From IMG/VR virus record IMGVR_UViG_2526164690_000021: 12,182 nt of DNA. One strand, 5' to 3'. Both the position numbers and the translations under genes were made by a program. The notes beneath the pieces were generated by a model. It had not been told where the DNA came from. It did not search any database and saw only the letters and a program-made list of their open reading frames with translations. The DNA is from a virus (Duplodnaviria > Heunggongvirae > Uroviricota > Caudoviricetes). Positions 7,279 to 7,920 of the stretch are shown here, one piece after another. Each line of letters opens with the position of its first letter. Position 1 is the stretch's first letter.

Positions 7279-7920
7279 ATGCGTGATTACGCAAAAGTTT
7301 CTCCGCGATTCTGGCTGGGAGAAACGGGGAGAGAACTTAGAAAGGCGGGTGCAGAAGCGCAAGTTGTTGCTTTTTACCTGATGACATCCCCTCACGCAAA
7401 TATGCTGGGTTTGTATTACCTGCCAGTTTTATACCTTGCTCATGAAACCGGGCTTGGTCTGGAAGGGGCTTCAAAGGGGCTTAAAAGGGCTGTTGAAGCT
7501 GGTTTTTGTAGCTATGACCATGATGCAGAGATGGTCTGGGTCCATGAAATGGCAGCCTGGCAGGTTGGGGAAACGTTGAAGCCTGGCGATAACCGTTGTG
7601 CAGGTGTCAGGAATGAGTATGCATCATTACCTGAAAACGCTTTTCTGTCAGTGTTTTACGACAGATATAAAACGGATTTCCATCTGGATGTGAGGCGGAA
7701 TAATAGCCGAAATTCGGTAAGGGGCTTCGAAGGGGCTTTTAAGGGGCTTCGAAGCCAAGAACAGGAACAGGAGCAGGAGAAAGAACAGGAACAGGACAAA
7801 AACACTATGGTTCATGGCAAAAAAACACCACGAACCAGGCAGGGGATGTTCAGACCGTCAATCCTGGTCAGCCAGCAGGCACGACACCGGAAGCCGATTC
7901 GGGCGCTGTGCAGCAGGTGA
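7279..7920 (+). CDS. Replication initiator (O-like / YdaU-like), N-terminal part with low-complexity EQ-rich linker
   Basis: ATG 7279 with GAGG 5 nt upstream, MRDYAKVSPRFWLGETG...; the track ORF starts at ATG 7168 without SD. Contains iteron-like repeats; reading frame continues into 7908..8369 if the A7 run at 7819-7825 is A8. Confidence 0.6.
   Translation: MRDYAKVSPRFWLGETGRELRKAGAEAQVVAFYLMTSPHANMLGLYYLPVLYLAHETGLGLEGASKGLKRAVEAGFCSYDHDAEMVWVHEMAAWQVGETLKPGDNRCAGVRNEYASLPENAFLSVFYDRYKTDFHLDVRRNNSRNSVRGFEGAFKGLRSQEQEQEQEKEQEQDKNTMVHGKKTPRTRQGMFRPSILVSQQARHRKPIRALCSR
7463..7492 (+). repeat. Iteron-like direct repeats (AAGGGGCTT x2 plus a degenerate third copy, 11-bp phasing)
   Basis: AAGGGGCTT at 7463-7471 and 7474-7482, AAAGGGCTG at 7484-7492. 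Confidence 0.4.
7719..7749 (+). repeat. Iteron-like direct repeats (AAGGGGCTT x3, 11-bp phasing); candidate ori
   Basis: Exact 9-mers at 7719-7727, 7730-7738 and 7741-7749, followed directly by a purine-rich tract. Confidence 0.45.
7759..7800 (+). repeat. Imperfect hexanucleotide tandem repeat (GAACAG)n, 7 units, encoding EQEQEQEKEQEQDK
   Basis: Units GAACAG GAACAG GAGCAG GAGAAA GAACAG GAACAG GACAAA read directly from the sequence. Confidence 0.7.

Follow-up and report, generated by a model that had tools for sequence, protein, structure and literature searches.

Phased 9-bp repeats inside a phage replication initiator gene as a candidate replication origin in an Escherichia coli prophage

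We analyzed a 12,182-nucleotide stretch of viral DNA (Caudoviricetes; IMG/VR record IMGVR_UViG_2526164690_000021; hereafter, the window), in which a phage replication initiator gene carries five copies of the 9-mer AAGGGGCTT in two clusters. An earlier note, made from the letters of the window alone, had proposed these repeats and an adjoining purine-rich tract as a candidate origin. On comparative grounds, we consider it probable (roughly two chances in three) that the 9-mers are binding sites for the initiator and form the replication origin of the phage. The repeat pattern is the expected signature of iterons read by a winged-helix domain. The candidate origin gained strong comparative support from conservation of the DNA independently of reading frame and orientation, from frozen synonymous sites and from a different motif in a sister family of initiators; what had to be given up was an AT-rich element, a repeated KGL peptide and a placing of the repeats in the linker only.

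Exactly five copies of AAGGGGCTT were present, all on the + strand: at 7463-7471 and 7474-7482 (cluster 1), and at 7719-7727, 7730-7738 and 7741-7749 (cluster 2). Spacing was 11 bp inside each cluster and 256 bp from cluster to cluster, and these exact coordinates bear out the five copies, two clusters and 11-bp phasing given in the earlier note. Both clusters sit in paralogous 42-nt blocks (7458-7499 and 7714-7755), which are 79% identical and each end in GAAGC. From this identity, a degenerate third unit can be recognized in cluster 1 at about 7484-7493, so that iteron cluster 1 spans 7463-7493 (+) and encodes EGASKGLKRA. Iteron cluster 2 spans 7719-7756 (+), encodes RGFEGAFKGLRS and consists of the three exact copies and a conserved half unit, AAGCC, at 7752-7756. 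As AAG-GGG-CTT, the 9-mer comes close to a palindrome, and its extended consensus is TCG-AAGGGGCTT-CGA. Because 11 is not a multiple of 3, the copies fall in differing frames, and the five together use all three: EGA and KGL in cluster 1, and RGF, EGA and KGL in cluster 2. The statement that the 9-mers encode a repeated KGL peptide thus holds for two of the five copies only.

No other 9-mer was as frequent in the window as AAGGGGCTT. In the 49.9-kb prophage of E. coli EDL933, it occurred at only these five sites (0.41 expected), and no second origin or site set was found elsewhere in that prophage. A promoter and terminator scan of the region gave results at chance level, and Rfam returned no match in the repeat region. 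Readings of the repeats as G-quadruplexes or as internal Shine-Dalgarno sequences were dismissed by reasoning: most relatives have two G-runs per cluster, and the inverted CCCC is equally conserved.

Homologs of the N-terminal domain of the initiator (N-domain) were found in phages of Klebsiella, Shigella (the Shiga toxin (Stx) phages 75/02 and POCJ13), Acinetobacter, Ralstonia and E. coli. Every phage homolog examined had AAGGGGCTT twice, at gene nt 185/196, and two to three more copies with 11-bp phasing at nt ~440-465, directly before AAGCCA(A/G)GA(A/G)CAGGAACAG. Cluster 2 was reverse-complemented (AAGCCCCTT) in the loci of Shigella phage 75/02, E. coli ES5, an Acinetobacter phage and a Ralstonia phage, and these inverted copies encode EAPSEPL, SPLQAPSKPL or EAPPKPL, as opposed to EGAFKGL.

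When one genome per species was scanned, 79 loci were obtained, ranging from Enterobacteria to Burkholderiales, Legionellales, Acidobacteriota and further groups. The six most distant belong with the sister family described below and were left out; the other 73 and six annotated loci made up an analyzed set of 79 (family A), mostly one per species, from Gamma- and Betaproteobacteria plus some other phyla. With copies counted within 1 mismatch, at least two were present in both clusters in 66 of the 79 loci. The cluster 1 position (nt 185/196) held at least two copies in 70 loci and the cluster 2 position (nt ~430-465) two to three copies in 70, and neighboring copies were spaced by exactly 11 bp in 164 of 185 cases. 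Cluster 1 was forward only in 69 loci. By contrast, cluster 2 was reverse only in 50 loci, forward only, as in the window, in 10, and mixed in 13. The motif core was 33-fold enriched over flanking DNA. The earlier note had advised comparing the repeats across relatives and had held that free variation would count against an origin; the layout is kept in these 66 loci, and the motif varies together with the N-domain, as described below.

In E. coli OkiPb01713 (locus L004), the initiator gene is frameshifted by one more 11-bp unit in cluster 1, which has three exact copies there (gene nt 185-216); a gain of 11 bp shifts the frame, so that slippage of the iterons inactivates the gene, and the repeats are a mutational liability. 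In a metagenome-assembled genome of Acidobacteriota (locus L158), cluster 2 is expanded at nt 470-556 to about 7-8 units of AAGGG[G/C]CTTCG before the Gln-Glu (QE) tract, the largest array seen.

To compare synonymous sites, we aligned 71 loci by codon. The motif codons were used almost to the exclusion of their synonyms (GAA 62/62, GGG 61/64, GCT 60/66, AAG 60/60, GGG 60/66 and CTT 62/68). Their synonymous entropy was 0-0.56 bit, as compared with 1.3-2.4 bit for other, equally conserved codons with four- or sixfold degeneracy (Gly, Ala, Leu, Pro, Thr, Val, Arg and Ser); conserved twofold codons elsewhere gave 0.4-1.0 bit. This near-invariance indicates purifying selection on the repeat as DNA. 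Selection on an encoded KGL-type peptide, or a cluster arisen by chance, would be an alternative: the EGAxKGL peptide is conserved in cluster 1, and some 9-mer reached a count of 5 in 8 of 300 dinucleotide shuffles of the window. The latter makes the copy count alone weak evidence, and it is clustering, phasing and conservation that carry the case, not copy number. The 11-bp phasing of 164 in 185 neighbor pairs, the use of three frames within one gene, the unrelated peptides encoded by inverted copies, the location of cluster 2 in a disordered segment and the frozen synonymous sites leave this alternative with hardly any credibility, and we rejected it on the inverted peptides, the phasing and the synonymous sites. 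Selection is on the DNA rather than on the peptide that it encodes.

It could also be that the repeats bind nothing and are a by-product, 11-bp slippage duplications in linker DNA that is kept for promoting recombination between mosaic modules. A mosaic junction does lie just past the hexamer tract (~7799), slippage does change copy number, as in E. coli OkiPb01713, and hexamer copy number varies among close relatives. However, cluster 1 lies away from the module junction and yet its synonymous sites are frozen across the 71 loci, one motif is kept at two places 256 bp apart in either orientation and is swapped at both in the sister family, and neutral slippage products would decay at 45-60% protein identity. 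We regard this explanation as improbable.

The most distant homologs had no AAGGGGCTT; instead, another short repeat occupied the same two positions. A targeted scan for this sister family (family B) yielded 80 viral loci. The N-domains of families A and B are homologous (hhalign, 99.6%; 31% identity). In family B, the repeat AAGGGTT/AACCCTT was present in at least three copies in 76 of 80 loci and in both clusters in 75 of 80; its sites are AAGGGTTTC, spacing was again mostly 11 bp, cluster 2 occurred in either orientation, and the motif was about 90-fold enriched over flanks. The two motifs hardly overlap in distribution: the family-A motif averaged 0.01 per locus in family B, and the family-B motif reached at least three copies in no family-A locus. 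In this covariation test, AAGGGGC in family A thus corresponds to AAGGGTT in family B, with both clusters switching together: the sites change along with the domain of the initiator that is predicted to bind them. Overall, the repeats are conserved as DNA in about 150 related phage replication genes.

What accompanies the N-domain is exchangeable. Among motif-bearing loci, the C-terminal module varies, as does the gene downstream, which encodes a DnaC-like ATPase in some loci and a primase/helicase in others, for example; the N-domain is the sole constant partner of the motif. This bears on the proposal that another factor reads the sites, either a host protein or a neighboring phage protein (ECs1072 family or DUF1627). 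Such a reader is quite unlikely, given that the hosts span Enterobacteria, Acinetobacter, Burkholderiales, Legionellales and Acidobacteriota, that the neighboring genes differ and that the motif tracks the N-domain family. In phage Tritos (locus L001), an unrelated N-domain is fused to the C-terminal module of the window, and the gene has a repeat of its own, GTCACG, in two clusters with 10-11-bp phasing, at gene nt 129-165 and at 389-435; a periodic GATAAAGATACA tract comes after the second. A layout of two clusters and a tract is thus not confined to the family of the window.

The initiator gene (7279-8369, +) consists in the window of an N-terminal open reading frame (ORF) at 7279-7920 and a C-terminal part that runs on in another frame to 8369; the ORF is intact in EDL933, with 363 amino acids (aa) and the protein accession WP_001205823.1. 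The layout is a predicted N-terminal winged helix, then a linker rich in QE and finally a C-terminal module whose tail resembles that of DnaT. The intact protein matched PHROG 1701 over its full length (E 8.9e-149; residues 1-363 aligned to all 323 positions of the profile), a profile whose name, 'DnaD-like helicase loader', is annotation only. The C-terminal half alone matched PHROGs annotated 'replication initiation protein', and a weak profile match was to phrog_6251, 'replisome organizer DnaA-like' (E 1.5e-4). Pfam gave no family for the halves encoded in the window (E <= 0.01) and, for the intact protein (E <= 10), only a chance-level match to PhyR_sigma2 (E 0.13). NCBIfam, searched with both halves and the intact protein, gave only a sub-threshold match to the DnaT tail, and a PDB sequence search likewise had the DnaT C-terminal tail as its sole match.

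An AlphaFold2 model of residues 1-164, based on a 32-sequence alignment, had a predicted local distance difference test score (pLDDT) of 82.5. It is a winged helix-turn-helix, with H1 (25-35), S1 (45-47), H2 (50-57), H3 (60-73), a wing (77-88) and two more helices; the predicted fold is that of a generic winged helix. The predicted DNA-binding domain comprises aa 1-143 (7279-7707, +), and its predicted recognition helix H3 (aa 60-73) corresponds to 7456-7497. Cluster 1 (codons 62-68) is thus predicted to lie inside the codons of the recognition helix. Residues 144-164 had a pLDDT below 50, placing cluster 2 and the QE tract in a disordered linker. The likeness to lambda drawn in the earlier note, with repeats in the linker of the initiator gene, therefore stands for cluster 2 and fails for cluster 1.

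The C-terminal tail of the intact protein, ...NHISEPDTEIPPGFRG (8298-8366, last 23-24 codons), closely resembles the tail of the host primosomal protein DnaT, and the rest of the protein is unlike DnaT. The last 24 residues (...SEPDTEIPPGFRG) scored 17.8 bits against an NCBIfam cut-off of 201 and matched DnaT chains in the PDB with E 0.02-0.07. Membership of the DnaT family was rejected: only the tail motif ...SEPD..IPPGFRG is shared, and there is no whole-protein match. The resemblance of the tails suggests mimicry of DnaT by the phage initiator, as a means of engaging either DnaB-DnaC or the DnaC-like protein of the phage. Other phages match only from ~7799 onward, placing a mosaic joint directly past the hexamer tract. 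In the C-terminal linker, (C)CNGAAGCCGAT(TC) occurs three times (7887-7900, 7959-7972 and 7983-7996), at spacings of 72 and 24 nt, both multiples of 3. The copies encode PEADS, PEADS and READR, and relatives carry four; unlike the 11-bp iterons, this looks like an in-frame peptide or duplication repeat.

The purine-rich hexamer tract, (GAACAG/GAGCAG/GAGAAA)n, lies at 7759-7796 (+), is 87% purine and encodes EQEQEQEKEQEQ within the interdomain linker. It starts 9 nt past the last AAGGGGCTT copy; the earlier note had placed it directly after cluster 2 together with an A7 run, and of these the tract is upheld and the A-run is not an element. Nor did the AT-rich unwinding element inferred there hold up. 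By nearest-neighbor duplex stability in 40-bp windows, the tract (7759-7798) ranked at the 50th percentile and the segment with the A-run (7796-7835) at the 74th, so that both are of average stability, and no low-stability peak was listed between 7680 and 9000. A7 itself proved to be a frameshift allele of A8.

In most homologs, cluster 2 is followed by a tract with 6-bp periodicity. Across both families, this tract reads as QE, PE, TG, TV, VS, AE, GA, ES, GS or SN; two loci have it reverse-complemented, and there it reads as PA or VT. In a tally of 96 distinct tracts, about 80 had CAG on the coding strand, and hexamer copy number differs among close relatives. No extra synonymous constraint was detected in the tract: CAG made up 56% of Gln codons inside and 58% outside, and GAG 53% and 50%. 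Codon use in the QE tract thus equals that of the rest of the gene, which leaves CAR-GAR as the only constraint, and selection may be for no more than a flexible hydrophilic linker. The independence of frame and strand is the sole remaining hint of a role as DNA.

These observations admit a tentative two-part proposal, which we hold to be doubtful as a whole: that cluster 1 is self-referential, and that the hexamer tract is a cis-acting DNA element replacing an AT-rich DNA unwinding element (DUE). In the first part, the DNA of cluster 1 would encode the very helix predicted by the model to read cluster 1. The pattern recurs in both deep families, as EGAxKGL with AAGGGGCTT and as ExxxKGF with AAGGGTT; reader and site, being physically coupled, would therefore have to co-evolve and move as one specificity cassette. 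In the second part, the tract consensus, CAGNNN on the coding strand, would place CTG every 6 nt on the template and make the tract a candidate unwinding or helicase/primase entry site. It could take the form of an array of DnaG CTG priming sites or of a strand-specific array for binding single-stranded DNA, like the DnaA-trios beside DnaA boxes.

Positions 7200-8400 of the window are 100% identical to E. coli FORC_044, and one base separates them from EDL933 and 38 further listed genomes, mostly labeled O157. Alignment showed this base to lie in the A7 run at 7819-7825 (+), which is A8 in EDL933: a one-base deletion and -1 frameshift. Among the matches listed (40 rows), one spanned 1201 bases and 39 spanned 1202. 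FORC_044 annotates the initiator gene as 'frameshifted', and a viral contig (L034) also has A7 and a truncated ORF. The window product, cut short past the linker, is 213 aa long with an out-of-frame tail, and the C-terminal module with its DnaT-like tail is lost. The initiator gene is therefore a pseudogene in this strain, with intact repeat sites; the earlier placing of the repeats inside a replication initiator gene was right as to location, in a gene that is frameshifted here. The cis-encoded initiator is probably dead in this strain, unless A7 is an assembly error; A7 could have arisen by genuine slippage or reflect an error in sequencing the homopolymer. A7 as a functional element or programmed frameshift was rejected, because the other listed genomes have A8 (by span length) and the EDL933 ORF is intact. 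The A-run is enclosed by a 10-bp inverted repeat, TGGTTCATGG / CCACGAACCA (7808-7837), at the 5' edge of the shared C-terminal module. It folds as DNA with -6.0 kcal/mol (z -2.7 against shuffles) and scored as terminator-like on the - strand, and phage Tritos has an inverted repeat of this type with a longer stem. The lambda origin likewise includes an inverted repeat, which lies to the right of the AT-rich region.

If the 9-mers are the origin, initiation might proceed as follows. N-domain monomers would bind each AAGGGGCTT, as the fold and the covariation suggest. The 11-bp spacing would place neighboring monomers on nearly the same helix face, giving cooperative arrays of 2(+1) and 3 sites. 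The two arrays, 256 bp apart, could be bridged by initiator-initiator contacts, with the DNA between them wrapped or looped as in the lambda O-some; the arrays are direct in the window and inverted in most relatives. Strands might then open beside cluster 2, perhaps in the hexamer tract and helped by supercoiling or transcription, a step that is speculative because no AT-rich element is present. Judging from the covariation of C-terminal domain and downstream gene, the exchangeable C-terminal module, here with a DnaT-like tail, would recruit the downstream DnaC-like ATPase and host DnaB.

Several points weigh against an origin. The covariation is partly trivial, since cluster 1 is itself part of the coding sequence for the predicted recognition helix; the change in cluster 2 is the independent signal, because that cluster lies in a linker unconstrained at the peptide level. 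The 'inversion' of a near-palindromic 9-mer alters only its central GGG to CCC. The loci are related by descent, so that their counts are not independent events. The stability profile revealed no AT-rich DUE beside the repeats, and no binding or replication experiment on any family member was found in the searched literature. Finally, initiator-bound repeats could be operators or copy-control sites instead.

This last point leads to the main rival, that sites for the same initiator serve regulation (autorepression, handcuffing or titration) and that the true origin lies elsewhere in the phage. Plasmid iterons double as control elements, DNA-level conservation and covariation would fit any initiator-binding function equally, and an AT-rich DUE is missing beside the sites. 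We nonetheless judge regulation alone to be unlikely: the 9-mer is found nowhere else in the 50-kb prophage, leaving no second site set as the 'real' origin, and the sites lie 180-470 nt into the ORF rather than at a promoter, in a region where the promoter scan was at chance level. Their position at the boundary between N-domain and linker also matches the in-gene origins of lambda and SPP1 (PMC7466680, PMC6316719).

The element that hosts this putative origin is an E. coli O157 CP-933M-like, lambdoid, Rac-like prophage, and the initiator gene belongs to its early region, next to yccA. Gene order in the window is a helix-turn-helix repressor (5349-5750, -), a cro-like gene (5858-6130, +), a YdaT-family gene (6114-6539, +), an ECs1072-family gene (6745-7236, -), the initiator pseudogene with its repeats, a DnaC/IstB-like AAA+ ATPase gene (8376-9122, +), a DUF1627 gene (9144-9914, +) and a DUF977 gene (9915-10343, +). 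The ATPase, annotated 'ATP-binding protein' and with the accession WP_000788751.1, matched PF01695 IstB_IS21 (E 5e-19) and the Bac_DnaA ATPase domain (E 3e-8) and is presumed to be the helicase-loader partner of the initiator. The ECs1072-family gene lies antisense between the ydaT-like and initiator genes, and its product had no Pfam or PHROG match. It is absent from the annotated homologous modules examined; its place is taken by cII and a small ORF in Shigella phage 75/02 and in E. coli ES5.

Other features of the window lie farther from the repeats. As annotated in EDL933, where the sequence is the same, a RelE/RelB toxin-antitoxin pair (4843-5321, -) adjoins the prophage repressor gene. 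Rfam returned gathering-level matches to the small RNA DicF near dicB (3121-3172, -) and to full-length RNA-OUT, the IS10 antisense RNA (98.8 bits; 11547-11616, -), between an alpha/beta-hydrolase gene and hokD. No IS10 transposase is annotated near the latter, and the match may thus be a remnant of an IS10 end.

The module is widespread: it was found in 547 of 5426 complete E. coli genomes, and also in the Stx-phage type Eru4 and in phages and prophages of Klebsiella, Acinetobacter, Burkholderiales and other groups. In the plasmid collection, it was not evidenced as a plasmid replicon. An origin inside an initiator gene is of the textbook kind, a theme known from lambda and SPP1; the literature searched (motif, QE-repeat replication proteins and in-gene replisome-organizer origins) yielded nothing on the origin of this family, on the 9-bp motif or on the layout. 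Should the 9-mers be the origin, origin and specificity determinants would be defined for a very widespread replication module whose initiator has neither a Pfam family nor a published function. The 9-bp signature would then predict origin position and initiator specificity from sequence alone and offer a handle for building replicons or for blocking replication of Stx phages, and the origin would be one apparently without an AT-rich unwinding element. The repeats also make a compact case of DNA that is both coding sequence and predicted binding site, within the codons of the helix predicted to read it.

Comparison with known systems places the module among in-gene origins, with features of its own. 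Plasmid iterons are 17-22 bp long and intergenic, beside AT-rich 13-mers and DnaA boxes. The iteron plasmids, with their winged-helix Rep proteins (RepE, pi, TrfA and RepA), show no sequence homology to the module of the window, whose sites are 9 bp long and intragenic. The iterons of lambda and of Stx phages are about 19 bp each and bound by dimers. As in lambda, and also in the Stx phages 933W and P27, the repeats of the window lie in the initiator ORF at the boundary between N-domain and linker, and hence are translated, and N-domain and iterons would form a specificity cassette, with the C-terminal domain matched to the loader. The window differs in its initiator, which is not Phage_rep_O (no Pfam match), and in its sites, 9 bp long and 11-bp phased as opposed to the four to six longer and wider-spaced iterons of lambda and Stx phages. 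It also has two clusters 256 bp apart, one of them in codons of the DNA-binding domain, and a QE-coding hexamer purine tract in place of an AT-rich DUE. In lambda, the origin inside the initiator gene marks the boundary between two domains, of which the N-terminal one binds the origin and the C-terminal one recruits the loader (PMC7466680).

The Bacillus phage SPP1 offers a second parallel. Its oriL has direct repeats within gene 38 that are bound by the replisome organizer gp38, and its module runs in the order initiator, helicase loader and helicase (PMC6316719). The window shares direct repeats within the initiator's own gene, with binding predicted. SPP1 has an AT-rich DUE and a second origin, oriR, whereas the prophage of the window has no second site set; repeat sequence and host range differ as well. 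To the replisome organizers, the window protein is tied by its weak phrog_6251 match, and it has no Pfam match to Phage_rep_org_N. The Tritos protein, annotated 'N-terminal phage replisome organiser' and likewise without a Pfam match, has the same two-cluster layout and C-terminal module as the window.

A third related system is the Eru4 replication module (the Stx phages 75/02 of Shigella and POCJ13). The 75/02 homolog defines this replication type, the lead protein of which has been called a protein of unknown function (PMC8951638). The Eru papers name the module without describing repeats or an origin, and PMC8951638 mentions neither iterons nor a replication origin. The 75/02 N-domain is 79.6% identical to that of the window over aa 1-137, and the E. 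coli ES5 copy, nearly identical to that of 75/02, is 76% identical over the aligned N-domain. 75/02 shares the 9-mer clusters, the DnaT-like tail, the DnaC-like gene downstream and the same gene order, and differs in that its cluster 2 is inverted and has two copies. By N-domain identity and gene order, the module of the window appears to be homologous to the Eru4-type module.

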